Origin: Promethearchaeota archaeon
GTDB taxonomy: Archaea; Asgardarchaeota; Lokiarchaeia; Sigyniarchaeales; SOKP01
Length of the DNA: 50,363 bases
Reading direction: 5' to 3'
Assembly: GCA_018238625.1 (NCBI GenBank)
Contig: JABCSY010000018.1
Span: 1 to 50,363 of the forward strand
Shown here: piece by piece, positions 1,157 through 25,108 of the stretch
Position numbering within the stretch: position 1 is the first letter of the stretch
Layout: each line of letters starts with the position of its first letter
Translations under genes and position numbers: made by a program
The notes under the pieces: model-generated
Told to the model about the DNA's origin: nothing
Databases searched by the model: none
The model's input: the letters and a program-made list of their open reading frames with translations, nothing else

Positions 1157-1275
1157 TATTTTTCCAATAATAGATTCACCTTGATGCAATTAATATGAAT
1201 TATAAGGATTTTTTAAAAAAAAGGTTATGGAAGGATGAAAAATTTAATTGATGAATCCGGCTTCTTTTTTTTAGA

Positions 1276-1881
1276 TTAAAGGAATGATTGATTGAGCAAG
1301 AATTCTAAATTATTATCGGTGAGAGTTATGAAATCTTTTGTAATTAATTCACACGACTCTTTCGCTCCATCATGTATCCAATTGAGAATAGAATTCAGAT
1401 AACCTGCTGTATAAAACTCAGAAATTCTCTCTTTCGAAACCCTTATTTTTGAATCATCTGGTTGGATTAGATTCAGCAATAAAATGAAGAATTTTTTGAT
1501 GGTACTAAAGATCAGGTTATGTTTTGAAATAATTGACTTACTTTCGCTTAATTGAATATATAATTTCGAATAACGTTTAAAATATTTCACGGTTTCCAGC
1601 AATCCTTCCCAATATTTTTCAATTAGTTTATCATTTTCAATACCCTCTTCAAGATATATCTCATTCTTCCACGCTTCTATTAGATAATCTTCTAATAAGT
1701 CACTTTTATCAGAATAATGAGCGTAGAATGTTGTCCGATAGATCATTGCTTGTTTAGAGATCTGTTGGATTGAAATATCTTTTAAATCCTTCTTTTCAAG
1801 CAATTTTGCGATTGCTTCTCGAAGTAGATATTTGGTTCTTTGAACTCGTAAATCTTCATTTTTTGATTGTTGATCTTCCAT
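1276..1881 (-). CDS. TetR/AcrR family transcriptional regulator
   Basis: DLRVQRTK…ISIQQISKQAMIYRTTFYAHYSDK helix-turn-helix; start moved to ATG 1881 because the upstream extension runs through promoter repeats. Confidence 0.9.
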   Translation of the reverse strand: MEDQQSKNEDLRVQRTKYLLREAIAKLLEKKDLKDISIQQISKQAMIYRTTFYAHYSDKSDLLEDYLIEAWKNEIYLEEGIENDKLIEKYWEGLLETVKYFKRYSKLYIQLSESKSIISKHNLIFSTIKKFFILLLNLIQPDDSKIRVSKERISEFYTAGYLNSILNWIHDGAKESCELITKDFITLTDNNLEFLLNQSFL

Positions 1882-1977
1882 ATTTCTATACAACTCTAAT
1901 TTCTTTTCATACTTTCTTGTTGAATTAAGATTTATGTAGATACAAGTAAAAATGTTTTTACAGCCAGCAATTAATTT

Positions 1978-2056
1978 TGTTTTAATGCAACAATGTGGGG
2001 AAAAACAAAATGGTGTTTTAATGCAACAATGTGTCATAAAACAACAATGTTTTTAA
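1978..2056. promoter_or_regulatory. candidate TetR operator array in divergent promoter
   Basis: Perfect 20-bp direct repeat tgttttaatgcaacaatgtg at 1978-1997 and 2014-2033, plus AAAACA…TGTTTT dyads. Confidence 0.55.
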
Positions 2057-2100
2057 ATATATAAGGATTATTATAATGTAAACATCTTGGAGAAAAAAAA

Positions 2101-3099
2101 ATGAAGAAAATGAAGAATCATATTACGATTCCATATAGAGAAGTTAATCACGGTAGCTTTGATGAGGAGTGGCTTCCACATAACAAAGTTTCTGGTTGGT
2201 GGTATGTTACAGGTTATTTAACTGAGGAAGGAAATTCAAACCTTTACTCTTATCAATATACTCTGCTTAAAGTGAGAAGATATGGTTTCACATTCTATGT
2301 ATCAATGATTGGATTTACAGATTTTCAAACCAAGGAACACTACTATCATCAACGATTTGGATTTCAGGGAAAAAAAATTTATGTGAACAAAAATGAGGCT
2401 GTCTTTCTTCCTTATAGTTCACTGACTAAAAAAGAAGACATTTTTAACATTATATTAGAAACTGATAAGATTAGTCTTAACTTGACCCTAAATAAAGGGA
2501 AGGGGGCTTTTTGGCATGCTGATAATGGAGTTTTAGTAATGGGAAATAAAAAGGATAAAAAACAAAGGACTGTATACTATTCTTATCCTAACATGCCAAC
2601 GAAAGGAATAGCTACTATAAAAACAAACGAAAAGAAACTTAATTTGACTGGAAGCTCATGGTTAGACCGACAATGGGGTTCTTATGATCTGGTTGACGCG
2701 TCTACCCATTGGGAGTGGTTTTCGTTACGGTTTTTTGATCAAGAAGAGATAATGCTATTTGCATTTCCTCAACATCCTTATCTGGATGGAACATACATAA
2801 CACAAAACCGAGTGAGTGTTCGAGTTAGAGATTATGAGCTTTCTCCTGTTGAATTAGTAGAAGTTGATGGATTAGAGTTTTCTAAGGGCTGGAAACTAAA
2901 GATACCAGGAATAAAAGAAGAGGAATACACAATTCAACCCCTCTTGGATGGACAATTGAACCTTGCTTACTATGAACTACTAGCAAGCATTTTCAATACC
3001 AAGAATGAACTAGTAGGATACTGTTTTGTTGAACTCTTACCTGGAGTAAGAAATCCTGACAAAAAGATTAAAGCTTTAAATCTATTTAAGAGAAAATAG
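2101..3099 (+). CDS. AttH/CrtC-like lipocalin-fold protein (putative hydratase/hydrolase)
   Basis: WWYVTG, YYSYP, GSSWLDRQWG and WEWFSL motifs typical of the family. Confidence 0.75.
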   Translation: MKKMKNHITIPYREVNHGSFDEEWLPHNKVSGWWYVTGYLTEEGNSNLYSYQYTLLKVRRYGFTFYVSMIGFTDFQTKEHYYHQRFGFQGKKIYVNKNEAVFLPYSSLTKKEDIFNIILETDKISLNLTLNKGKGAFWHADNGVLVMGNKKDKKQRTVYYSYPNMPTKGIATIKTNEKKLNLTGSSWLDRQWGSYDLVDASTHWEWFSLRFFDQEEIMLFAFPQHPYLDGTYITQNRVSVRVRDYELSPVELVEVDGLEFSKGWKLKIPGIKEEEYTIQPLLDGQLNLAYYELLASIFNTKNELVGYCFVELLPGVRNPDKKIKALNLFKRK

Positions 3100-12326: not shown

Positions 12327-13367
12327 CTATTTATCGATTATCATTTTATCTTGAACTTGATCGGTCAGTAAAATTCTTAAGTAACTTTTATCGTTTTTGA
12401 AATTTACTTCTTCTAATTTACCATTAACTAGCACATTTTCACCATTGATTGCTTGTTCGCAAAATCTTCCTCTAAACGAGTTAATTTCAATAAGAGCTTT
12501 TAAGTCTACGTCTCTGCAATTAATATTACTTTCTAAAACTTTTAAAAGCTCTATTTTATAAGAACAAGGAGTAAAAATTGAATTGGTTGATTCAATAACT
12601 TTTGCTTTTATTTTTATCCGCCCTAAGTTCTTAAATTTGTAATCGTAATAAGTTCCTTTCCAAGCTTCGGGACTTTTAATATATCTTATAAAAAAATCGA
12701 TTCCATGAAATTTTCCTTGGTGTAACTTTCTTTTTTCGCTTTTTAAAAACTCTTCGAAGTTAATATCAGACCCTCCGACTCTCCATTTATAATGAGTTTT
12801 ATATTCCTCTAAATTATACATACTACAATTGTTTGAAGCTTGAAAAATATTTTTTAATTTATCTTGAAATTCTAAACTAACTTGAGTACCATAAATGACT
12901 ATATCAATATCTGAGCTTTTTTTGTCTAATCCAATCATAGGAGACCCCGATATCCCAATAGAATTTTCTGGAATATCACCTTTATCAATTAAAAGTTCAC
13001 ATAGATTTTTAGACTGAATTTCTGTTTCTATTAAATCATTTTTATCTTTAAGCTTTTTAAAATAGGCTCTAGGGGTGTAAATTTGTTTTATATCTTCTAA
13101 TTTTACTCCTTGAAGTTCTAAATCAAAATTTTTCGAAAAGAATAGATGTTGAGGATAATGCTCTCTTAATTTTGAGTATCTCTCATCGAGCGAATAGATT
13201 TTTTTAAATTTAATGTCATCCTTTATTCTATCTCCATTTTGATCAGGATAAAATCTTAAAAAACAAATCTTACGATCATTAGGGTGATGAATACCTTTTA
13301 TATCAAAAAATAGATGGTTTTGTTTTGTTTCAAGGTAATCTCCTTCAATTCCTTTTGGAATTTTCAT
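12327..13367 (-). CDS. archaeal predicted nucleotidyltransferase
   Basis: IGISGS…SSDIDIVIYG polymerase-beta-type motif; N-terminal FDIKGIHHP…FLRFYP. Confidence 0.8.
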   Translation of the reverse strand: MKIPKGIEGDYLETKQNHLFFDIKGIHHPNDRKICFLRFYPDQNGDRIKDDIKFKKIYSLDERYSKLREHYPQHLFFSKNFDLELQGVKLEDIKQIYTPRAYFKKLKDKNDLIETEIQSKNLCELLIDKGDIPENSIGISGSPMIGLDKKSSDIDIVIYGTQVSLEFQDKLKNIFQASNNCSMYNLEEYKTHYKWRVGGSDINFEEFLKSEKRKLHQGKFHGIDFFIRYIKSPEAWKGTYYDYKFKNLGRIKIKAKVIESTNSIFTPCSYKIELLKVLESNINCRDVDLKALIEINSFRGRFCEQAINGENVLVNGKLEEVNFKNDKSYLRILLTDQVQDKMIIDK

Positions 13368-13387: not shown

Positions 13388-14470
13388 TTAATATTTTGAA
13401 GGGGTTTTTGATTTGATTTTATATTTTGGAATCTCTTTTATTTTTCTTAACTCTCTTTCAAAATCGCGCTTTTCTCTGAGAAATCTCTCTTTATCGCTTT
13501 TTAATTTTTCTCTTTCTCTTCTAATTGCCTGCTTTTCATTCTGTATCGTCGATTTTTCTTTTTCCAATTGTTTAGATTCATTTTTTAATTTTTTAAGTTT
13601 ATTCTCTAAATTACGAATTTTATGTTCTAAAGAATAAAAAGTATCTTCTGCTTTAGGAACTTTTCTTTCTAATTCCTTCAATCTTGCTTCTTGACCTTTT
13701 TTCTTTCTTTCTAATTCTCTTACGTCACGATCTGCATTCTCTTTATACTTGCTTAATCCTTCTTTTTTTTTATCAACTTCACGAGATTGAAGATTTAAAT
13801 CTTTTTTTTTATAGCGAACTTTTTCTTTTTCATCTTTTAATTTTCTTTTCTCATCTTCAATTCGATTTTTTTCATCTATTATTTCTCTTCTCAAACTATT
13901 GGTTTCTTTGGTTAGATTATCTCTTTCTCTCGTTAAATTCTTAATTTCATTTCTCAAATCCATTAATGTGTTTTCCAAATTTTCAATAGTTCTTTCTAAC
14001 GCATTTTCTCTCCGTTCCATACCGGGTATTTTAGTTTTAATTTCCTTAATTCTATCTTTTGCTCTTTCTTTATCTTTTTCTAAATATTTTTTCTCACTCT
14101 CTATCTCGTCTTTTAATCCTTGTAGTTTCTCTTGATATCGTTCTAAGTTAGCATTTTTTTGATCTAGATTATCTCTACTTTGCTTTATTTCATTTCTCAT
14201 AGTTTCTAATTCATTTTTTAATTTTCCATGTTTATTTTGTAGGTCTCTCACTTGAAGTTCTTTTTCTTTTCTTTTCTTTTCTAAATCTTCAATATTTTCG
14301 TTGTATCCTTCAAATCTTTTAATAACCTGTTCCCATTCGTTTTTCTCTTTGTTCAATTTAGCTGTTTCTTCCTTAATTTTTTTGAGTAATTTAGCATCTG
14401 GAATTACATCTAATTGCTCTTCAGGTGTTTTTTCTCGAATTTGATATTTAGGAATGTGTTTATCGTTCAT
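13388..14470 (-). CDS. long coiled-coil protein with matching N- and C-terminal motifs
   Basis: About 310 aa of E/K/R/L-rich heptads; IPKYQIREKTP at the N-terminus and IPKYKIKSKTP at the C-terminus. Confidence 0.85.
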   Translation of the reverse strand: MNDKHIPKYQIREKTPEEQLDVIPDAKLLKKIKEETAKLNKEKNEWEQVIKRFEGYNENIEDLEKKRKEKELQVRDLQNKHGKLKNELETMRNEIKQSRDNLDQKNANLERYQEKLQGLKDEIESEKKYLEKDKERAKDRIKEIKTKIPGMERRENALERTIENLENTLMDLRNEIKNLTRERDNLTKETNSLRREIIDEKNRIEDEKRKLKDEKEKVRYKKKDLNLQSREVDKKKEGLSKYKENADRDVRELERKKKGQEARLKELERKVPKAEDTFYSLEHKIRNLENKLKKLKNESKQLEKEKSTIQNEKQAIRREREKLKSDKERFLREKRDFERELRKIKEIPKYKIKSKTPSKY

Positions 14471-14643: not shown

Positions 14644-15021
14644 ATGGATTTTGAGGAAGATTTTAACGAGGAACTTGACGAAGACTTAGATGAAGAATTA
14701 GAGGAACCTTCTACAAAGGCCCCCACGGAAGAAGTTGCAGTTAAAACTCCAGATCAAAAAATCTCACAAGAAGGAAAAAAGATTTCAGTGTATTTTCTAT
14801 CAACCATAGGACCTGGTGAGAAAAAACAAAAATTACTTGTTTTCACGGGCAATCTGGTGGGAGATATCAAGGAGACTGTAGCAAATTTGTTTGCTTTAGA
14901 TCCTGCAGATTTTCATTTATCTTCGGGCGGCGTAACCATGGATGAGGATAACCAGTTAAGTGATTATAATGTGGTTGATGGAGATGATATATTACTAATT
15001 CCAGCTAGCGTAGCTGGTTGA
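14644..15021 (+). CDS. ubiquitin-like protein A (acidic N-tail, C-terminus …IPASVAG)
   Basis: Beta-grasp pattern: VGDIKETV helix, FHLSSGGVTMDEDNQLSDYNVVDGDDILLI resembles ubiquitin [30 protein letters not shown]; adjacent to E1/E2. Confidence 0.85.
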   Translation: MDFEEDFNEELDEDLDEELEEPSTKAPTEEVAVKTPDQKISQEGKKISVYFLSTIGPGEKKQKLLVFTGNLVGDIKETVANLFALDPADFHLSSGGVTMDEDNQLSDYNVVDGDDILLIPASVAG

Positions 15022-15073
15022 ATAAATTGGAAAGATAGAGACAATTTAGTAATATTTTTTTCATTTTTCACTT

Positions 15074-15862
15074 CTATTTTTTTCTTGATGGAATTAGCGC
15101 AATTTCGTCATCATCGTCAATAGCATAATCTTTTATTAGAAGAGTTTCATCTAATAAAATCCCCCCAGATGATAATAGAAAACCTTCTAGATTATAATCA
15201 AATAATATTCCAACTTTTTCTTTTATGACACTTACTAATTCAGACGTTTCAATTATGAGAATCTTAGTTTTCTCACCTGGTTCGACTAATGACCTTATAT
15301 AAACACGTACTTTCTCATCCATCCCAATAGTTTGCAATGGTGGGTTGTATATCACTTGTTCCTCAGTTAAGCTCTTGGTTTCTAACATGTCTTCAATTAA
15401 CTGTTTTCTCTCACCGGCATCAAAATACAACATTTCCCTAATAAAAAATATTTTGTCCATTTTTGATAATCCTAAGAGATCAATTTTAGCTATTTCTTCT
15501 TTATTAAAAATAGTAAAAATATAATCATCCATCGATTCTATTTCCTCGAATGATTCCACTGCATTGGCATAATTATCAATTAAAGGCATTGCATCAAAAT
15601 AATCCTCAAGTAGAGCACTAGTTTTTTTCTTACTCAGTTTTTGCTTAGGAAAAGATTTAATATCTTTCATCTTCACATTGGGGGTATTTTTAGATTGAAC
15701 AACTGTGTAGATAGTGCTTGTGGATAGCACAGCAACACTACCAATTGTTAAAAAGAGATATATTGGAACATTTTCTACTTGTAAAAAGATAAGAATCAAA
15801 TAAACAAATGCTATCCCTACGTAAAGAGTTATGAGACTTAAGACTCTAAAATTCTTCCTCAT
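15074..15862 (-). CDS. two-TM membrane protein with C-terminal ubiquitin-like domain
   Basis: Two N-terminal hydrophobic helices; last ~80 aa align with the two free Ubls (PGEK, IKE, LSSGG, DE, KDY, LIP) but end SRKK. Confidence 0.85.
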   Translation of the reverse strand: MRKNFRVLSLITLYVGIAFVYLILIFLQVENVPIYLFLTIGSVAVLSTSTIYTVVQSKNTPNVKMKDIKSFPKQKLSKKKTSALLEDYFDAMPLIDNYANAVESFEEIESMDDYIFTIFNKEEIAKIDLLGLSKMDKIFFIREMLYFDAGERKQLIEDMLETKSLTEEQVIYNPPLQTIGMDEKVRVYIRSLVEPGEKTKILIIETSELVSVIKEKVGILFDYNLEGFLLSSGGILLDETLLIKDYAIDDDDEIALIPSRKK

Positions 15863-15946
15863 GATTTTTATGATAAATTTTATTCAAATTTCTAATATAT
15901 AATTCAAAATATAAATCCCATTGGAATAAGTTTGAAATTTTGATGC

Positions 15947-16618
15947 TCACTCACCTAAAATTGATTCTCTTATCTTATAGTATTTCTCTGCATTGATTTT
16001 AAAAGAAACCTTTTTATTTTCTTTTTCGATTGTTACTAAATCCAGATTTTTTAATATTTCAAGATACTTTTTTATCGTATTATAATTCTTTTTTAATCCA
16101 GTTGAAATTTCAGTACCCTTTAATGTTTTATTTTCTTTAATCATAAAATCAATTATTTCTTGTACAATATTTCGTTTTAAATAAAAAAATAACATATCGT
16201 ATTCTGGATTTGAATCGTATTCAAAGATTATTTTTTGATTGCCAATTTTTTTTGATCTAGTAAATCTAAATTTTTCAAGGCAGGATAAATGCCATAGTGT
16301 TTGATTGCTTCCAATATTAATGGCTTTCATTATTTCATTAATATTTGATGGATTCTTTCTAATATAGTTATAGATCTCGTTTCTAATGGGGTGCTCTATA
16401 ATATTGTTTTTCATTAATTTTGTTCCAGGAACTAAAATTCTTTTTTTAATTAGATTTTTAATTATAAGTTCAATACTATTTTTATTTAGATAAGGGTTAG
16501 ATTTTACTCTATTATTGATAAATACAACAATATCTTCTATTGAAAAGAAAGGTTTCTTTTTCAAATATTCCCCTATTAAATCACAAACAATAGATTGAAG
16601 GTTATCCGGAGAGCTCAT
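15947..16618 (-). CDS. multi-domain winged helix-turn-helix regulator
   Basis: RNEIYNYIRKNP…WHLSCLEKF and EISTGLKKNYNTIKKYLEILKNLDLV wHTH repeats. Confidence 0.8.
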   Translation of the reverse strand: MSSPDNLQSIVCDLIGEYLKKKPFFSIEDIVVFINNRVKSNPYLNKNSIELIIKNLIKKRILVPGTKLMKNNIIEHPIRNEIYNYIRKNPSNINEIMKAINIGSNQTLWHLSCLEKFRFTRSKKIGNQKIIFEYDSNPEYDMLFFYLKRNIVQEIIDFMIKENKTLKGTEISTGLKKNYNTIKKYLEILKNLDLVTIEKENKKVSFKINAEKYYKIRESILGE

Positions 16619-16886
16619 AGGCTTATATTTTTACTATGTTAAAAGGTCTGAACTTATTAATCAAATCTTCTTTCTAAACAGTATTCTCACCAATAAATAT
16701 TAATAAATTGTCATTCAATTTATAAATATATGTTCTTAGGAACTCTAATTAATATATTATTTCGTTTTCTTTTTAAAATTAATAAAACTTCAAAATCATT
16801 CCAATGGGTTTTTTAATATCATTTTAACATCATATTATTAAATTCTTAAAAAAAAATAAATTAAAAAAATAGATAAAGTGATTTGA

Positions 16887-17222
16887 ATGAGTTTTGAAGA
16901 CGATTTTGATGAAGAATTAGAACCAGTTAAATCTAAAACTCCATCAACAAGTAAAACACCCTCAACAGGCAAGAAGTTGACTCTATATTTCATGTCAACT
17001 ATTGGTCCTGGTGAAAAGAAGGAAAAGTTAACGGTGAACGACGCTAATAATGTAAGTGACATCAAACAAACATTAGGAAATTTATATGGACTTGATCCTG
17101 AAGAATTTCATCTTTCCTCTGGAGGAAGAACAATGGATGAGGATAGTCAATTAAAAGATTATAGTGTTAGCGACGGCGACGATATACTTTTAATTCCAGC
17201 AAGTACTGCTGGATACTTTTAA
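16887..17222 (+). CDS. ubiquitin-like protein B, pro-form (C-terminus …IPASTAG-YF)
   Basis: About 70% identical to Ubl A over the 82-aa core; first gene before E1; GTGA upstream of the ATG. Confidence 0.88.
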   Translation: MSFEDDFDEELEPVKSKTPSTSKTPSTGKKLTLYFMSTIGPGEKKEKLTVNDANNVSDIKQTLGNLYGLDPEEFHLSSGGRTMDEDSQLKDYSVSDGDDILLIPASTAGYF

Positions 17223-17248
17223 ATATTTCTTTTCATAAAATTTAATAT

Positions 17249-17282
17249 AAGGGCATTAAGCCCTTCAATTTTTTTATTTTTT
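17249..17282 (+). terminator. hairpin plus T-tract between Ubl B and E1
   Basis: aagggc-attaa-gccctt followed by aatttttttatttttt. Confidence 0.55.
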
Positions 17283-17300
17283 CAATTAATAATAATAATA

Positions 17301-18551
17301 GTGATAATATTGGATAAGGAATCAGATTTTTTTGCCAAAGGAATGACAGTGGAAGAGAGAGATTTGTATGATCGCCAATTTCGTTTGGAAGGATGGTCTC
17401 AGAATTTGGTAAAAGACTCAAGAGTGTTAATTGTAGGCATTGGTGGGTTAGGTTGCGAAATTGCTAAAAACCTAGCCATGTTAGGTGTGGGCCATTTAGA
17501 TCTTGTTGATTTAGACATTATTGAGCATTCCAATTTGAATCGCCAACTTCTTTTTGTTGATGCAAAGTTAGGAGAACCAAAAGCTATTGTGGCGGCTAAT
17601 AAGCTAATCAAGATTAATCCTAATGTTACTGTAAAAGGATATCATACTTCCTTAGAAAGGTTAGATCCTGCTTTATATCATGCAGCTGATGTTGTTATTG
17701 GAGGTCTTGATTCAATGAATGCTCGTTTGAACCTAAATGCGCAATGTATAAGATTTAGAAAACCATTAGTGGATGGAGGTACATCTGGTTATCACGGACA
17801 TATGTATTCAATCTTTCCGTATCGGAATGCTTGTTATGAATGTAATCCACTACCAGTAGGAGAGAGTGATGAAATGGCGGCTTGTACAGTGGTAGGTATC
17901 CCCCGAAAACGGATTCATTGTGTTTTTAAAGGAGATATGGCGTTTAAAGAAAAATTTGATAGAGATCTGAACCCAAAAAATATAAAAGATATTGAATTTA
18001 TCCAAAAAGTCGCAAATGAATTAGTGAATAAGCATAATTTCCTACCAGAATATACTTCTGATGATATAGTTAAAATCATTGATCGTCATGATCCTGGGAT
18101 CATTACTATTAATGCAGTTATTTCTGCTTTAGAATCACATGAAGCTGTGAAAATCTTGCATTGGAAAAGAGGTCATAAGAGTTTAGGACGGCCCATTTCA
18201 AGTTATGTTATATTTAACGGAATGACAATGAAACTGTATCATATTGAAAAGAAGAGAAATCCGGAATGTTCTCAATGTGGTAAAAATGTAAGGCGTGTTG
18301 CTATAAAAATGAAAGCTCAATCACCCTGTATGAATATAATTAGAACATTGCAAAAAAATGGATATGAATTAGATCCTGAATTTGAACCAGTTGTTACCTT
18401 ACAGGATTTCAATGATATCATGGTTTTAGATTTAGAGCAAAATGTAAGCGAAAATGGTTTAAGAAATTACGAATTTCTAACCGTTGTGGGTTTTAAGGGT
18501 GGAGATATTTATGTTACATTAAAATTAAAACAAAAATTAAATCAAAAATGA
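17301..18551 (+). CDS. ubiquitin-like activating enzyme E1 (Uba2/Uba3-like)
   Basis: LYDRQ, VGIGGLGCE, DLDIIEHSNLNRQLLF, GLDS…AR, CYEC and CSQC zinc ligands, catalytic Cys in ACT…P…HCV. Confidence 0.95.
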   Translation: MIILDKESDFFAKGMTVEERDLYDRQFRLEGWSQNLVKDSRVLIVGIGGLGCEIAKNLAMLGVGHLDLVDLDIIEHSNLNRQLLFVDAKLGEPKAIVAANKLIKINPNVTVKGYHTSLERLDPALYHAADVVIGGLDSMNARLNLNAQCIRFRKPLVDGGTSGYHGHMYSIFPYRNACYECNPLPVGESDEMAACTVVGIPRKRIHCVFKGDMAFKEKFDRDLNPKNIKDIEFIQKVANELVNKHNFLPEYTSDDIVKIIDRHDPGIITINAVISALESHEAVKILHWKRGHKSLGRPISSYVIFNGMTMKLYHIEKKRNPECSQCGKNVRRVAIKMKAQSPCMNIIRTLQKNGYELDPEFEPVVTLQDFNDIMVLDLEQNVSENGLRNYEFLTVVGFKGGDIYVTLKLKQKLNQK

Positions 18552-18615
18552 TTTTTGAGAAAAATCTATTAAATAAAAAGTATAAAAAAAAAGTATAAAA
18601 AAAAGGGTTGAGAAA

Positions 18616-19143
18616 ATGAGTATAAGAACCAGTCGTGTTTCCCGAGATTTTGCGGGATTAAAAAAATTGCTTAAACAAGGTACTATTATCCAATTAAAAC
18701 CATTTAATCCGAAAAAAAAGAGTATTGATCATTTAGCAATCACAATTAAAGGTCCTAAAGGTACAGCTTATGCAGGGGGATTGTTTAAGTTAGAAATGAG
18801 ATTCCCTGCTCAGTATCCTAAGCAACCTCCTTTCGTAAGATTGCATACTCCAATTTGGCATCCAAATTTTTGGGCAAAACCAAGTGAATACAAAGGACAG
18901 AGAAATATTTGCTTAGCTTTAGTAGATCCTTCTTTAACGGGTAAAAAAGGAGGATGGAGTCCTTCAAAAACAGCAAATACTGTTGTTCAAGCAATAATTG
19001 CCATGTTAAACACCCATGGTAAATATGTTAATCCCACTGATGTTTTTAATAAAAAGGCAGCTATAGAAATGATGAAAGATCCGAAATTTTTTGATAAGAA
19101 AGTAAAAGCGTTAACAAAGAAGTATTGCAAGGATAAATGGTGA
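18616..19143 (+). CDS. ubiquitin-conjugating enzyme E2 (UBC fold)
   Basis: GPKGTAYAGGLF, FPAQYPKQPP, IWHPN, ICL catalytic Cys, WSPS. Confidence 0.95.
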   Translation: MSIRTSRVSRDFAGLKKLLKQGTIIQLKPFNPKKKSIDHLAITIKGPKGTAYAGGLFKLEMRFPAQYPKQPPFVRLHTPIWHPNFWAKPSEYKGQRNICLALVDPSLTGKKGGWSPSKTANTVVQAIIAMLNTHGKYVNPTDVFNKKAAIEMMKDPKFFDKKVKALTKKYCKDKW

Positions 19144-19150
19144 ATTAATA

Positions 19151-19939
19151 ATGAATAGTGATGATAATGCGCTCAGAGATGCAATAAAAAAGAAAATTAA
19201 GGAAAAAATTAAAAAGGAATTACTTGAAGAAGTATATACCGAATTACAACTTGAAGAATTGCAGGAAGAATTAACCACTGAAATTATTAGAGCAAAGCCT
19301 TTAGTGCATTCAAAAGAATTTAAAGCCAATCTTGAGCCAATTCCTATGGAACCAATCAAAACTGTAGCTAAAAATGATAAAGTTGAAGTATCTATGACTA
19401 TAAAATCTATCCTTAAGATCGCTAGCCATTCATTAAAATATGCACATTCTAAAATGCGAAGAGAGAATTGGGTTGAAGTAATAGGGTTGCTTGCTGGAAA
19501 ATACGACAATAGAAAAGGAATTCTTCATGTTGAAGATGCGTATCCGATGGGGCATGGTACAGCAGTTTATGCTGAAATCAAAGATTATAAAAATTATGTT
19601 AGAGCCTACAATGATATAAAAAAAAATAATCTGTCTATTTGTGGATGGTATCATTCTCATCCTTCTTATGGATGTTTTATGTCGCGAGAAGACTTAGGAA
19701 CTCAAGCAAGATATCAAAAATTATGGGATAAAGCTATTGCGCTTGTTATAGACCCATATCAGATTAACGGGAAATCTTTAGGTTTTGAAATTTATCGTGC
19801 TAATTTTAAAACAAAAAAATGGTTTTCAATTCCATTTGATATTAAGGGGCATTTAGATGTGAGAATGTTACCAGAAATTTTAGAATTTATAAATCCTATT
19901 ATTGAAGGAAAACCAGTTTATTTAGAATATGATGAATAA
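19151..19939 (+). CDS. JAB/MPN+ metallo-isopeptidase (Rpn11/CSN5-like)
   Basis: EVIGLL plus GWYHSHPSYGCFMSREDLGTQ JAMM motif; ALVIDP. Confidence 0.95.
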   Translation: MNSDDNALRDAIKKKIKEKIKKELLEEVYTELQLEELQEELTTEIIRAKPLVHSKEFKANLEPIPMEPIKTVAKNDKVEVSMTIKSILKIASHSLKYAHSKMRRENWVEVIGLLAGKYDNRKGILHVEDAYPMGHGTAVYAEIKDYKNYVRAYNDIKKNNLSICGWYHSHPSYGCFMSREDLGTQARYQKLWDKAIALVIDPYQINGKSLGFEIYRANFKTKKWFSIPFDIKGHLDVRMLPEILEFINPIIEGKPVYLEYDE

Positions 19940-19970: not shown

Positions 19971-21089
19971 ATGGTAAAAAAAAAAGTGTTAAGGATAATA
20001 GCTATTTTTTTCCTAATAATTGGCTTAACTCATGGTTTAATCTCATATTCTTTAACTATTTTTTTTACTTGGTTATTAATCGGATTATGGATCATATTTA
20101 CAATAAGGATTTTTGAAAATATCAAGCACCACCGTGAGTATAATTCACCGCATAATACTGCATTTTTTGTAATTCTCCCATTATTTATCGGGATTTTTTA
20201 CTCCATATGGGGGTCTTTTACGGGTATATTGGGAGAAAGTCTTATTGATGGCGTGTATTTTAGTTTTTGGAGTCTAATTTTTGCTTTTCCATTCGTAATG
20301 TATGGTTTATATTCTTTATATCGTTGTTTTAAGAAATATAATATAATCTATTTTGGAAAAAAATCAGTAAAAGCAAGGGCGTTGGGATATATTCTATCAA
20401 TCTCAGTTCTTATTTTTATTATTACCTATTGGATAACTTTGTATAGTTTTATTGAATTTCCTCCAGTAGACTTAAATCTCCTATTACTTTTCATAGCTAT
20501 AGTTTTAATATTAATTGTTTTTGGATTTACATCTAATACTGGTTCATCAATACCAACATTAACTCGGGATTACATTGCCGAACGTACTAGAAGGATCAAT
20601 AATTTGACCACACCTTCAACCCAGAGACAAAGAGTACGCACAACACGCACAACTAATACATCTCCATCAACTAGAACAACTACACGTACAACAAGATCTA
20701 GAACTCAATCGTCAAGAACAACTCCTACATCACATAGACAAACGGCAAGGACTAGAACAACAAATACTACTAGTGTTAAACCAACTTTAAAAGTTCGTGA
20801 TCTAAATAAATATAAACCAAGAGCATCATATCTTACAGTAGATGATTTCAAATGTATATTTTGTTTTAATTTACCAAAACTTCCTGGAGATAGAGGAAGA
20901 GGAATTGTTGTATGCCCAAATTGTAGATATCCCGCGCATGCTGATGAATTTAAAGATTGGATGCGAACTTCAAACCTCTGTTCACGTTGTAGTGCTACTA
21001 TACCATCAAGTTTTAGGCGTAATCCTAGAATTATATCTGTAAAAAATTATATGATAATCTATCGACATTTTTTAAAGAAGAAAAGATAA
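19971..21089 (+). CDS. polytopic membrane protein with Thr/Arg-rich linker and C-terminal RING-variant finger (putative E3)
   Basis: About 6 hydrophobic segments; CIFC-x16-CPNC-x4-H-x2-E-x3-W…CSRC; last gene of the E1-E2-JAB run. Confidence 0.75.
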   Translation: MVKKKVLRIIAIFFLIIGLTHGLISYSLTIFFTWLLIGLWIIFTIRIFENIKHHREYNSPHNTAFFVILPLFIGIFYSIWGSFTGILGESLIDGVYFSFWSLIFAFPFVMYGLYSLYRCFKKYNIIYFGKKSVKARALGYILSISVLIFIITYWITLYSFIEFPPVDLNLLLLFIAIVLILIVFGFTSNTGSSIPTLTRDYIAERTRRINNLTTPSTQRQRVRTTRTTNTSPSTRTTTRTTRSRTQSSRTTPTSHRQTARTRTTNTTSVKPTLKVRDLNKYKPRASYLTVDDFKCIFCFNLPKLPGDRGRGIVVCPNCRYPAHADEFKDWMRTSNLCSRCSATIPSSFRRNPRIISVKNYMIIYRHFLKKKR

Positions 21090-23344: not shown

Positions 23345-23999
23345 GCATCCTTACGTAATTTTGAGCGCTGCCATGACAATTGATGGTAAAATTGCTTCTA
23401 AGATAGGAGACCCAGATATTTCTGATGAAGAAGACTGGAAAGCCGTACATAAACTAAGAACAGAAGTAGACGCAATTATGGTTGGTAAAGGGACGATATT
23501 AAAAGATAATCCAAAGCTTCATATCAAATATTACGATCATAGCGGATATTATCGAATTGTGTTAGATAGTACTCTTTCAATACCAATTGATTCAAATGTG
23601 ATAAAATATAAACCAGAAACTTACCCTACGATCATTTGTATAACTGAAAATGTTCCATTGGAGAAAATAAAAGAATTCGAATTAAAAAACATTAAGATTA
23701 TAAAATCAGGTAAAAGGAGCAGAGTTGATGTGGTTAAACTAATGTTAATTTTATATCAAAATGGTATTAAAAAGATTCTATTAGAGGGAGGAGGCAATTT
23801 GAATTGGAGTTTTATTAAAGATAATTTAGTAGACGAAATAAGACTAACAATTGCTCCTTGGATCGTTGGCGGTATTGATGCTACTAGCCTAGTAGAGGGG
23901 GAGGGTTTTTCAAAAATGATTGAAAGCCCTAGATTTATCTTATCTGATGTGGATCATAGAAATAATTACGTAATTCTAAAATATAAAAAAGGAAAATGA
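23331..23999 (+). CDS. arfC: 2,5-diamino-6-ribosylamino-4(3H)-pyrimidinone 5'-phosphate reductase (RibD C-terminal type)
   Basis: AMTIDGKIA, HKLR…DAIMVG…DNPKL, LLEGGG, LVDE. Confidence 0.9.
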   Translation: MKGNKHPYVILSAAMTIDGKIASKIGDPDISDEEDWKAVHKLRTEVDAIMVGKGTILKDNPKLHIKYYDHSGYYRIVLDSTLSIPIDSNVIKYKPETYPTIICITENVPLEKIKEFELKNIKIIKSGKRSRVDVVKLMLILYQNGIKKILLEGGGNLNWSFIKDNLVDEIRLTIAPWIVGGIDATSLVEGEGFSKMIESPRFILSDVDHRNNYVILKYKKGK

Positions 24000-25108
24000 C
24001 GGAAGACATTAAAAAAGTAAAAGAATTAAAATCTTTATCAATCAGAAAGCTAAAAGAAAAAGTTAATGAAATAAAAAATGAGTTAGATAAAGAAGAACAA
24101 AAAATTATAACCTTTTCTAAGAATTTCACCCTTTCCCTTTCTAACTATTGTCAAAATCAATGCGGATATTGTTTTTATAATCATAGGATCGCTAAGGAAA
24201 CAGGGGAAAAGAATGTTGTGTTAATTGAAGATGAAAAAGTTGATTTGATCACTCAAAATGCGGCAAAATATGGATGTAAGGAAGCTCTATTAATGTCGGG
24301 TGAACTTCCAGATAGCTTTCAAATAGTTCAGAAAGAGTTAAAAAAAAGAAATTTTGGAGATTTCCTACAATTTGTTAAAAATCTAAGCACAAATCTATTA
24401 AACGTGAATTTTTTACCCCATACCAACATTGGCATGCTTACATTTGAGCAATTAAGATGTTTAAAGGAATATAACGCTAGTATGGGTTTAATGTTAGAGA
24501 GCACTTGCAAAAATCTTTTTAAAAGCGGTGGAGTTCACGAAAATTCGCCTGGCAAAATACCTGAAAATCGAATCGAACATATTGAAAGTGCGGGAAAGCT
24601 AAAAATTCCCTTCACTACGGGTTTATTATTGGGAATTGGAGAGAGTTTTGAAGATAGGATAAAAGATCTGTTTTTAATTAAGGAAATCAATCTTCAATAT
24701 GGTCACATACAAGAAGTTATCATACAAAACTTTATAGAGAAAAAGGGTATACGATATAATCCAAGAACCCCCATAACTATTGAAGAAACCCTCAAAACGG
24801 CTGGAATCGCAAAACTAATATTTGAAAACGAGATTGCCATTCAAGTACCGCCTAATTTAATCCAGAATTACGAAAAAGAAGCCATCGAAATGGGCGTTGA
24901 TGATTTTGGTGGAATATCCCCTTTTACTTTAGATTATATCAACCCAGAACATCCTTGGCCTAAAATTGATTATTTAAAAAAGATTTGTGAAAAAAAAGGG
25001 TATAAACTGGAAGAAAGACTCCCAATATATAAAAAATTTATCAATAAAAAGGGATTCTGCTCCATAAATATTAAAAAAACCATAGATAATATTAATCAAA
25101 ATGTCTGA
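23996..25108 (+). CDS. cofG: FO synthase subunit 1 (radical SAM)
   Basis: ITFSKN, CQNQCGYC, LPHTN, SMGLMLE, FTTGLLLGIGE, HIQEVIIQNF, QVPPNL, NPEHPWP. Confidence 0.93.
   Translation: MTEDIKKVKELKSLSIRKLKEKVNEIKNELDKEEQKIITFSKNFTLSLSNYCQNQCGYCFYNHRIAKETGEKNVVLIEDEKVDLITQNAAKYGCKEALLMSGELPDSFQIVQKELKKRNFGDFLQFVKNLSTNLLNVNFLPHTNIGMLTFEQLRCLKEYNASMGLMLESTCKNLFKSGGVHENSPGKIPENRIEHIESAGKLKIPFTTGLLLGIGESFEDRIKDLFLIKEINLQYGHIQEVIIQNFIEKKGIRYNPRTPITIEETLKTAGIAKLIFENEIAIQVPPNLIQNYEKEAIEMGVDDFGGISPFTLDYINPEHPWPKIDYLKKICEKKGYKLEERLPIYKKFINKKGFCSINIKKTIDNINQNV

Follow-up and report, generated by a model that had tools for sequence, protein, structure and literature searches.

The stretch of DNA analyzed here (hereafter, the window) comprises 50,363 nucleotides of contig JABCSY010000018.1, from the assembly of a Promethearchaeota archaeon within the Lokiarchaeia (GCA_018238625.1; the genome is 98% complete), and the elements under study are two genes encoding paralogous ubiquitin-like (Ubl) proteins, denoted UblA and UblB. 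UblA (14644..15021, forward strand) is a protein of 125 residues, made of an acidic N-terminal arm and a ubiquitin-fold core, which finishes in ...LLIPASVAG: the raw DNA reads Ala (GCT, 15013-15015), Gly (GGT, 15016-15018) and a TGA stop (15019-15021), a form that can be described as born mature. UblB (16887..17222, forward strand) has 111 residues, arranged as an N-terminal arm (MSFEDDFDEEL...VKSKTPSTSKTPS), a core spanning from residue 30 to 104, the pair Ala108-Gly109 (GCT, 17208-17210, and GGA, 17211-17213) and then Tyr (TAC, 17214-17216) and Phe (TTT, 17217-17219) ahead of a TAA stop (17220-17222), its C-terminal sequence being ...LLIPASTAGYF. The original prediction, made from the letters of the window alone, had described cores identical at 58 of 82 positions, coincident Ala-Gly ends, a stop right after the Gly in UblA and two additional residues in UblB. 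This description proved accurate: the ungapped last 82 residues up to Ala-Gly contain exactly 58 identities, the BLASTP alignment (73 of 125 columns identical, E 1e-46, far beyond chance) places one Ala-Gly on the other, and the raw DNA contains the two different stops. The possibility of a read-through of the UblA TGA was considered and rejected, since the frame does remain open past it, but relatives use TGA, TAA or TAG at the same codon, which identifies it as an ordinary stop.

The family to which both proteins belong was approached through profile searches and structure prediction. UblB scored 31.6 bits with the Pfam ubiquitin model (PF00240), above the curated cut-off of 25.4, and when 31 aligned family members were scanned at a threshold of E ≤ 1, all 31 matched it, with a best E of 6.9e-9. 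Weak matches to Rad60-SLD appeared at the same threshold in 25 of the 31 (best E 3.3e-5; 21.0 bits for UblB, the cut-off being 23.8 bits), and the ubiquitin model outscored Rad60-SLD in every case inspected. A search of the PDB sequences with the family profile ranked ubiquitin and polyubiquitin chains first, and the profile alignment set UblB I103 on ubiquitin V70, so that A108-G109 fall on ubiquitin G75-G76 and the C-terminal tail of UblB, up to the Gly, has the length of that of ubiquitin. An AlphaFold2 model of UblB, built from the 31 sequences, had a mean predicted local distance difference test score (pLDDT) of 76 and displayed a beta-grasp core (residues 30-104, pLDDT 85-89) with the order strand, strand, helix, strand, short helix, strand, flanked by a disordered N-terminal arm (pLDDT 50-59) and a floppy C-terminus. 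The best Foldseek matches to this model were structures of Caldiarchaeum ubiquitin (6fno_D, 6fj7 and 6fnn_C), followed by ubiquitin variants, ISG15, SUMO, Hub1 and NEDD8, and VIA-align superposed it on ubiquitin (4auq_C; Z 14.6, root-mean-square deviation 1.1 Å over 77 residues) and on NEDD8 (1ndd_C; Z 13.9, 1.2 Å over 73 residues). UFM1 was not among the matches listed in either fold search, where it could occupy a lower rank. For P0099, a homologue with a model stored in the ESM Atlas, only ubiquitin and Rad60-SLD clusters of Promethearchaeota were found. Judged by sequence and by predicted fold, UblA and UblB are ubiquitin-family beta-grasp proteins.

The expectation that, among homologues, the Ala-Gly end would be invariant and the tail variable was confirmed by alignment. 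Considering the best 120 of 811 protein matches, Ala-Gly was present in all 120, followed by no residue in 36, one in 2, two in 57 and three in 25. The same pair was found in every one of 136 aligned cores (55 A, 65 B and 16 from lone UblB-like genes with no E1 gene beside them, denoted here as orphans). The classical C-terminal Gly-Gly is therefore absent, the penultimate residue being Ala, with the terminal Gly itself kept. In a more distant set, composed of 80 representatives of clusters at 50% identity, 44 retained an IPxxxAG end, which was the very C-terminus in 18, was followed by 1-7 residues in 23 and led into longer continuations in three. Those homologues that are near-identical and named come from metagenome-assembled genomes of Promethearchaeota. 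In addition, natural tandem proteins exist (P0121, with three Ubl units, and P0123, with two) in which ...STAG runs straight into the next acidic arm, an arrangement implying that cleavage after Ala-Gly takes place somewhere in the family. No genomic context for P0121 was found in the genome contig search, where only its relatives at loci L085 and L086 appeared.

Further architectures were observed in the same searches (P0121, P0123, P0124-P0130, P0138, P0142, P0148 and P0160). Besides the tandem poly-Ubl proteins of two or three units, these include proteins of 250-570 residues that start with a zinc-ribbon (YNCPKCK...) or roadblock-like part and continue with an arm carrying the K-T-P motif described below and a Ubl domain that ends at, or just past, Ala-Gly. 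In these cases, conjugation could in principle involve the entire protein. The distant locus L085 presents two separate Ubl genes in tandem (1189-1590, reverse strand, and 1768-2714, forward strand) ahead of E1, E2, JAB and RING-like genes, one product ending in ...HSTAG followed by the stop and the other in ...VSTAG-FDF.

The relationship between both paralogues was deduced from a tree of 192 cores (the 136 cores mentioned above plus 56 from a membrane-anchored type, the three window sequences included). The A and membrane-anchored cores split from the B and orphan cores with a support of 1.0, the 56 membrane-anchored sequences forming their own, long-branched clade, a topology arguing that A and B are old, separate orthologue groups. 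Several core residues (in UblB numbering) are fixed differently in each group: positions 31-33, in strand beta-1, are I-S-V in A versus L-T-L in B; position 46 is Gln in A versus Glu in B, in both cases with 100% conservation; helix positions 63-64 are V-A in A versus L-G in B; and position 61 also differs. The groups are distinguished, too, by the length of the acidic N-terminal arm and by the transcription unit: the gene of UblA is on its own, while UblB, placed just before a conserved hairpin and T-run, heads an operon with the genes for an activating enzyme (E1), a conjugating enzyme (E2), a JAB metalloprotease and a RING-like protein. It is by these features, and not by the tail, that the paralogues differ.

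The N-terminal arm deserves separate comment. In both proteins it begins with the acidic sequence M-S/D-F-E-x-D-F-x-E-E-L, and this is followed by a K-T-P motif (VKSKTPSTSKTPS in UblB), present in all 80 B-type open reading frames (ORFs) and in 48 of the 54 of the A type. A version of it (I-x-x-K-T-P) occurs in 50 of 51 orthologues of the coiled-coil protein encoded next to UblA, at both ends and repeated up to four times, and in only 0-2 ORFs of each of the remaining cluster proteins. It was considered whether the motif might represent a genome-wide acceptor consensus, and this was rejected because [IVLM][KRQNH][STEAK]KTP matched 6 of the 5504 ORFs versus 4-6 in five shuffles; the motif is not enriched in the genome and is confined to the Ubl locus. 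Our guess is that it constitutes either a shared docking site or a chain/acceptor lysine. At L085, a small upstream neighbor protein also carries it (...HRIKSKTPDDE...).

The nature of the tail was clarified by comparing its DNA among relatives. The codons TAC TTT of the window (17214..17219, forward strand) sit where tail-less relatives read TAA ACT. Indeed, tail-less B genes contain GGR TAA ACT TAT ATA ATT TTC TTC ATA, whereas the genes with Tyr-Phe contain GGA TAC TTT TAA ATA ATT CTT TTC ATA, the stop having been replaced and a new one being found two codons later. The remaining recurrent tails were explained in a similar way: genes ending in TFK have the Tyr-Phe DNA minus one base (GGT ACT TTT AAA TAA), and those ending in KLI or RLI correspond to the tail-less DNA with one base deleted (GGT AAA/AGA CTT ATA TAA). 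Tails thus come from the loss of the stop codon or from a one-nucleotide frameshift into conserved 3' DNA. In all 11 genes with Tyr-Phe, that of the window included, the tail is written as TAC TTT, with zero synonymous changes, while the three preceding codons vary. The presence of the same DNA in differing frames, together with this lack of synonymous variation, indicates that the DNA is conserved and the peptide is not; the tails, as read from these alignments, would be constrained non-coding DNA translated in whatever frame a mutation happens to leave.

The distribution of the tails is equally irregular. Among the 64 B genes adjacent to an E1 gene, 41 lacked any tail, 10 had YF, three RLI, two TFK, two KLI and six others were found once each. 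The 54 relatives' loci holding both genes included 31 with no tail in either, 10 with a tail in B only, as in the window, nine with tails in both and four with a tail in A only; the 13 tails of A proteins were each different. Absence of the tail is not accompanied by absence of the protease gene, as JAB was kept in 26 of the 26 tail-less loci that reach its position, and the seven loci without a JAB match all end at contig ends.

The DNA just downstream of UblB is conserved as well. The spacer between UblB and the E1 gene (17223..17300, forward strand, in the window; about 85 bases) is maintained across 65 loci and contains a 6-bp hairpin (AAGGGC-ATTAA-GCCCTT, 17249-17265) followed by a T-run. 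Across 64 sequences, 94% of the cells pair, and three of the six pairs change on both sides. The hairpin and T-run may be a putative terminator or attenuator that could set the ratio of modifier to enzymes. A second apparent hairpin, within the P-A-S-T-A-G codons (17195-17213), was rejected: third positions paired in 27 of 64 sequences versus 30.5 after shuffling, and in 36 of 64 versus 31.7, and the palindromic nature of the codons (CCN GCN ... GCN GGN) makes it a by-product.

Downstream of the spacer lie an E1 and the two enzymes that the original prediction had mentioned (a UBC-like E2 with an HPN motif and a JAB protein), and all were recovered. The E1 (17301..18551, forward strand; ThiF family, 191 bits) is of the canonical UBA1/UBA2/UBA3 type: it was closest to UBA2, the SUMO E1 subunit (E 2e-38), followed by UBA1 and UBA3 (about 1e-35) and, far behind, by UBA5 (7e-14). 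Its Cys in ...AACTVVGIP aligns with the UBA2 Cys in ...PGCTIRNTP, which we take to be the catalytic cysteine. The E2 (18616..19143, forward strand) has a UBC fold (UQ_con, 92 bits), the HPN motif and a Cys, in ...RNICLAL, aligned to that of UBE2R2. Next comes an Rpn11-like JAB/JAMM metalloprotease (19151..19939, forward strand; Pfam JAB, 55 bits), whose closest solved chain is the Caldiarchaeum Rpn11-like protein 6fju (E 2e-16) and whose JAMM residues (E109, H168, H170, S178 and D181, an intact E...HxH...S..D arrangement) are invariant in 24 orthologues; by analogy, it is the candidate trimming and deconjugating enzyme. The operon closes with a polytopic membrane protein (19971..21089, forward strand) composed of hydrophobic segments, a linker rich in Ser, Thr and Arg, and a C-terminal Cys/His domain (20787-21086) in which C23, C26, C43, C46, H51, C65 and C68 are invariant among 28 sequences. 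This domain gave no Pfam RING match and no match to PDB sequences; its model (pLDDT 90.5) had fold matches that, among those shown, were mostly RING/U-box ubiquitin ligases (E3), all of them weak (best E 0.009, template-modelling score about 0.5), making the protein a candidate E3.

The remaining genes of the cluster are encoded on the reverse strand. A third paralogue (15074..15862) has 262 residues, hydrophobic segments at its N-terminus and, at the other end, a Ubl domain that closes in ...IPSRKK; it is always convergent with UblA, and its relatives end in IP[S]RK without Ala-Gly, so conjugation through its C-terminus is not to be expected. The coiled-coil protein mentioned above (13388..14470) is divergent from UblA and carries the K-T-P motif at both ends (IPKYQIREKTPEE and IPKYKIKSKTPSKY). 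In the same orientation as its gene lies that of a nucleotidyltransferase-like protein (12327..13367), which had weak matches only (DUF4269, E 1.8e-4, below the cut-off) and was found in 49 of the 80 loci described next. Finally, a double winged helix-turn-helix protein (15947..16618), with matches to HrcA_DNA-bdg and HTH_5/ArsR and present in 59 of the 80 loci, is divergent from UblB and, from its domains, is a candidate regulator.

The conservation of this arrangement was surveyed by scanning one genome per species, which yielded 140 loci with UblB relatives, of which the best 80 were kept. Beside the UblB-type gene, these 80 loci contained E1 (64), E2 (61), JAB (56) and the membrane RING-like protein (54), together with a UblA-type gene in 54, the ORFs of the membrane-anchored type numbering 56; the gene order was always that of the window, and orphan genes accounted for 16 loci. 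UblB matches were found in 194 of 400 genomes of the phylum and in 119 of the 134 genomes, from 13 genera, of the window's own family. A contig labelled as Nanopelagicaceae bacterium (L014, DATKTW010000176.1) also contains a UblB-E1-E2-JAB cluster of the Lokiarchaeial kind, with 83-91% identity to the window proteins, and is probably mis-binned. With respect to expression, contigs from metatranscriptome library X18 were 90-99% alike over parts of 15330-16817 and 17376-19793, a degree of likeness that points mostly to relatives as their source; neither UblA nor UblB was covered by any contig piece from this one library, and the remaining three runs are probably DNA.

In the same genome, a second set of ubiquitin-type genes was identified. 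It includes a modifier of 83 residues ending in ...TQAGG (G000:C7:33223-33471, reverse strand, equivalent to L004 5221-5472), which at 39.5 bits is the best ubiquitin match of the genome, as well as a second canonical-type E1 of 525 residues (G000:C185:19721-21295, forward strand, L087) and a second UBC E2 (C185, about 23900-24330, reverse strand, L087), neither of which has an adjoining Ubl gene. Relative to the corresponding operon proteins, the modifier was 17% identical, the adenylation core of the E1 47% and the E2 37%. The Gly-Gly ubiquitin was found in 111 of the 134 family genomes, its full-length best matches being mostly 87-100% identical; its conservation greatly exceeds that of UblA or UblB. 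The second E1 was present in 133 of the 134 genomes and in all 13 genera, including those in which the search with UblB yielded at most one match. Short tails are also gained and lost here: within L089-L094, whose Gly-Gly orthologues are 99-100% identical, three end at Gly-Gly and three add S, L or C, so unstable short tails are not special to the Ala-Gly family. Two near-identical pieces of the second E2 (L088 4686-5000, reverse strand, from G000:C91, and L087 8902-9327, reverse strand, from G000:C185 at a contig end; ...MWHPNIDSSIPPGKLNICLDLINPDLVGK...) probably belong to a single gene that the assembly split or duplicated. Taken side by side with this 'true' ubiquitin, the Ala-Gly cluster looks like a second, paralogous modifier system.

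Comparison with described systems helps in placing the cluster. SUMO has a flexible N-terminal arm containing lysines, and it resembles the Ala-Gly modifiers in this trait, in the weak Rad60-SLD matches of 25 of the 31 members and in the proximity of the operon E1 to UBA2; it is set apart by the Ala-Gly end of the latter and by the higher scores of the ubiquitin model. The closest parallel comes from Caldiarchaeum. [quoted passage not shown] The full-length pro-ubiquitin is not activated by E1 until Rpn11 removes a nine-residue tail (PMC5654768), CsRpn11 cutting right after the Gly and also cleaving conjugates (PMC6043591, PMC5654768). As in the window, the gene of a ubiquitin-fold modifier lies beside those of an E1 of the canonical type, an E2 of the UBC type and a JAMM protease resembling Rpn11; CsUb itself carries at synthesis a C-terminal tail, which Rpn11 takes off ahead of the action of E1. 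The UblB model had CsUb as its best Foldseek match, and the JAB protein had CsRpn11 as its closest solved chain. The Lokiarchaeial cluster differs in that its modifiers end in Ala-Gly instead of Gly-Gly, in having two conjugatable paralogues plus a membrane-anchored third, in the acidic N-terminal arms of 30-45 residues with the K-T-P motif, in a candidate E3 that is a polytopic membrane protein instead of a small soluble RING finger, and in an unstable tail of 0-7 residues versus the nine of CsUb.

Among Asgard archaea, a Helarchaeial ubiquitin is made as a pro-form with Gly-Gly followed by Ser-Pro-Lys-Asn, and its E1/E2/RING E3 cascade was reconstituted in vitro (10.1101/2023.07.25.550441). 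The Lokiarchaeial cluster shares with it the type of cascade and a short tail past the reactive Gly, but the Helarchaeial modifier ends in Gly-Gly and is encoded with ESCRT genes; the same source describes Loki- and Thorarchaeia as devoid of UEV-Vps23, and its parts considered here contain no mention of the Ala-Gly family. In bacteria, the JAB protein BilC of Ensifer aridi BilABCD pre-processes the Ubl BilA to a bare terminal Gly, and the remnant of conjugation is Ala-Gly (PMC10557695). This system, likewise made of a Ubl, E1, E2 and JAB protease, indicates that an Ala-Gly end is compatible with the chemistry of conjugation, and it differs from the present one in being anti-phage and patchily distributed in bacteria. 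No link at the level of sequence families was found between the two: with PADLOC 2.0 (a defence library dated 2023), no Ubl or E2 matched, and there were only generic E1-core and marginal JAB matches.

These observations can be integrated in a model, to which a probability of roughly 70% is assigned, in which UblA and UblB are old, paralogous, Loki-type Asgard ubiquitin-family modifiers ending in Ala-Gly, served by the E1, E2 and candidate E3 of the operon and clipped by its JAB protein, the tail being a leftover. The sequences, the fold prediction, the family membership, the conservation, the origin of the tail and the intact catalytic motifs are the ground from which we infer all the biochemical steps, and these would run as follows. 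The adjacent canonical-type E1 would adenylate the terminal Gly and take the modifier onto its cysteine, then handing it to the UBC-type E2, and the membrane protein with the RING/U-box-like domain would help in its ligation to lysines. The Rpn11-like JAB would remove the modifier again and, as a by-product of this activity, clip any residues past the Gly. UblB of the window would therefore require one trimming step before E1 could adenylate Gly109, while UblA would be ready as made; the need for trimming is most likely given that of Caldiarchaeum pro-ubiquitin, and the same analogy makes the operon JAB the most likely enzyme for it. The Tyr-Phe pair would be what is left after loss of the stop allowed translation to proceed two codons into the conserved 3' DNA, and it would persist since that DNA is constrained and not since the peptide is needed. 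The state with a single tailed paralogue is probably unstable and near-neutral, and not a functional difference between them.

A number of facts weigh against this reading. YF is the commonest single tail, both in the listed proteins (38 of 120) and in the E1-adjacent genes (10 of 64), and the nearest relatives of the window (L005, L006, L007 and L016) keep a mature A together with a B ending in YF, which may reflect a lineage-specific use of this tail. That the tail DNA is held through a regulatory element goes a step beyond its observed conservation and is an interpretation. UblA scores 19.2 bits with the Pfam ubiquitin model, below the cut-off of 25.4. The window genome contains five further JAB-family genes, any of which could encode the trimming enzyme. 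Lastly, the IPxxxAG end is missing in 36 of the 80 distant representatives; in our reading, they comprise fragments produced by truncation or frameshift, the seven IPxRK paralogues anchored in the membrane, long multi-ubiquitin proteins of eukaryote-like appearance and four genuine variants, ending in IPAQI, VPAQN..., IPVSIAA and IPASSGGG....

The first two of these facts, along with the location of the JAB gene in the operon of UblB, are what could favor the notion, put forward in the original prediction, of Tyr-Phe as a designed gate, with UblB inactive until released by JAB and UblA always ready, that is, one regulated and one constitutive modifier. The part of that proposal concerning the need of UblB for trimming is likely to hold, considering the Caldiarchaeum precedent and the intact JAMM motif, but the idea of a gated and a constitutive design fares badly and is judged unlikely. 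In the 54 loci with both genes, 31 are tail-less, nine have tails in both proteins and four present the reverse situation; tails shift by frameshift while the DNA is kept; the YF codons lack synonymous variation and so do not point to selection acting on the peptide rather than on the DNA; JAB is retained with nothing to trim in 26 of 26 loci; and in the same genus, copies of the unrelated Gly-Gly ubiquitin that share 99-100% identity likewise differ by the gain or loss of a single S, L or C. Moreover, the tolerance to random frameshifted tails and the existence of tandem poly-Ubl proteins suggest that the cut behind Ala-Gly is made efficiently whatever residues come next, which is the opposite of a gate. 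An improbable alternative places the distinction in the enzymes and not in the tails, UblB being served by the operon E1 and E2 and UblA by those of C185. The existence of an E1 (525 residues) and an E2 with no Ubl gene beside them, their paralogy with the operon enzymes (47% in the adenylation core and 37%) and the fixed A/B differences would fit such a division, but the second E1, found in 133 of 134 genomes and all 13 genera, does not co-vary with UblA and was on this account rejected as its partner, and the Gly-Gly ubiquitin (111 of 134 genomes, mostly 87-100% identical) is a more natural one.

Two additional proposals start from resemblances to other systems. A role in defence against viruses, as a module like Bil or CBASS-Cap2, could be evoked because bacterial Bil also combines a Ubl, E1, E2 and JAB with an Ala-Gly remnant (PMC10557695), and because the E1 adenylation core had weak PADLOC matches to Cap2-type E1-E2 models. 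This is considered very improbable: neither UblA, UblB, the membrane-anchored Ubl, the E2 nor the RING-like protein had any PADLOC match, that of JAB was marginal (E 2e-4), and the occurrence of the modifier in 119 of 134 family genomes, in a cluster with a single gene order that the same GTP cyclohydrolase gene flanks in 44 of 80 loci, is the behavior of the core genome and not that of a defence island. Lower still stands an archaeal pathway of the UFM1 type, to which almost no credence is given. UFM1 has a single terminal Gly after a non-Gly residue, is made with a two-residue precursor cap and presents an IP-x4-G spacing, and the original prediction had noted the likeness of these traits to the single Gly, two extra residues and spacing of UblB. 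The likeness is, however, a coincidence of a short motif, as A108-G109 fall on G75-G76 of ubiquitin and none of the 31 family members matches Pfam Ufm1 at E ≤ 1, while all match ubiquitin. The genome, at 98% completeness, gave no match for UFC1 and none for Ufm1 over the cut-off (best E 0.16). The remark that the system would not be simply UFM1/UBA5/UFC1 was thus well founded, since the family of the modifier, the type of E1 (E 2e-38 for UBA2, with UBA1 and UBA3 near it, versus 7e-14 for UBA5) and the type of E2 (UQ_con with HPN) all differ.

The preferred reading of UblA and UblB as Ala-Gly modifiers can be extended, although tentatively and with the odds against it, to the existence of two insulated ubiquitin-type cascades per cell, one based on Gly-Gly ubiquitin with its own E1 and E2 and another based on the Ala-Gly modifiers. 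The Ala-Gly end, which may help in keeping both systems apart, would mark the separation at E1 and JAB; the N-terminal arm would, through its acidic patch and the 'K-S-K-T-P' sequence, offer a site for docking or for building chains that is shared with the coiled-coil protein, a role comparable to that of the SUMO arm with its own chain site; and the cascade would operate at the membrane, through its RING-like membrane ligase and its anchored Ubl. Were this true, the two cascades would represent an archaeal precedent for the eukaryotic split between ubiquitin and SUMO/NEDD8-like modifiers.

As for novelty, the cascade itself is of the eukaryote-like kind known in archaea from Caldiarchaeum and the Helarchaeon, and it departs from these in the invariant Ala-Gly end, the N-terminal arm, the paralogue trio, one member of which is anchored in the membrane, and the membrane RING/U-box-like partner. 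No description of the Ala-Gly end, the arm motif or the trio in Lokiarchaeia was found in the portions of the full-text literature compared, which also included PMC9192718, PMC4571567 and PMC10936438; the supplementary operon figures and alignments of PMC5654768 and PMC9192718 may contain such sequences. The difference between a gated and a constitutive modifier amounts to ordinary variation in precursor tails, and matters little. Of more practical relevance, trypsin would leave a remnant of 19 residues (DYSVSDGDDILLIPASTAG, the UblB sequence that follows Lys90), so that standard proteomics directed to di-Gly remnants would miss Ala-Gly conjugates. The ubiquitin systems of archaea are regarded as precursors of that of eukaryotes, and the biochemistry to date deals with the Gly-Gly modifiers of Caldiarchaeum and of one Helarchaeon. 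A large Lokiarchaeial family with an invariant Ala-Gly end, an N-terminal arm, three paralogues of which one is anchored in the membrane, and a RING-like membrane partner, next to a separate Gly-Gly ubiquitin having its own E1 and E2, would place the start of modifier diversification, of the kind seen between ubiquitin and SUMO or NEDD8, before the eukaryotes.

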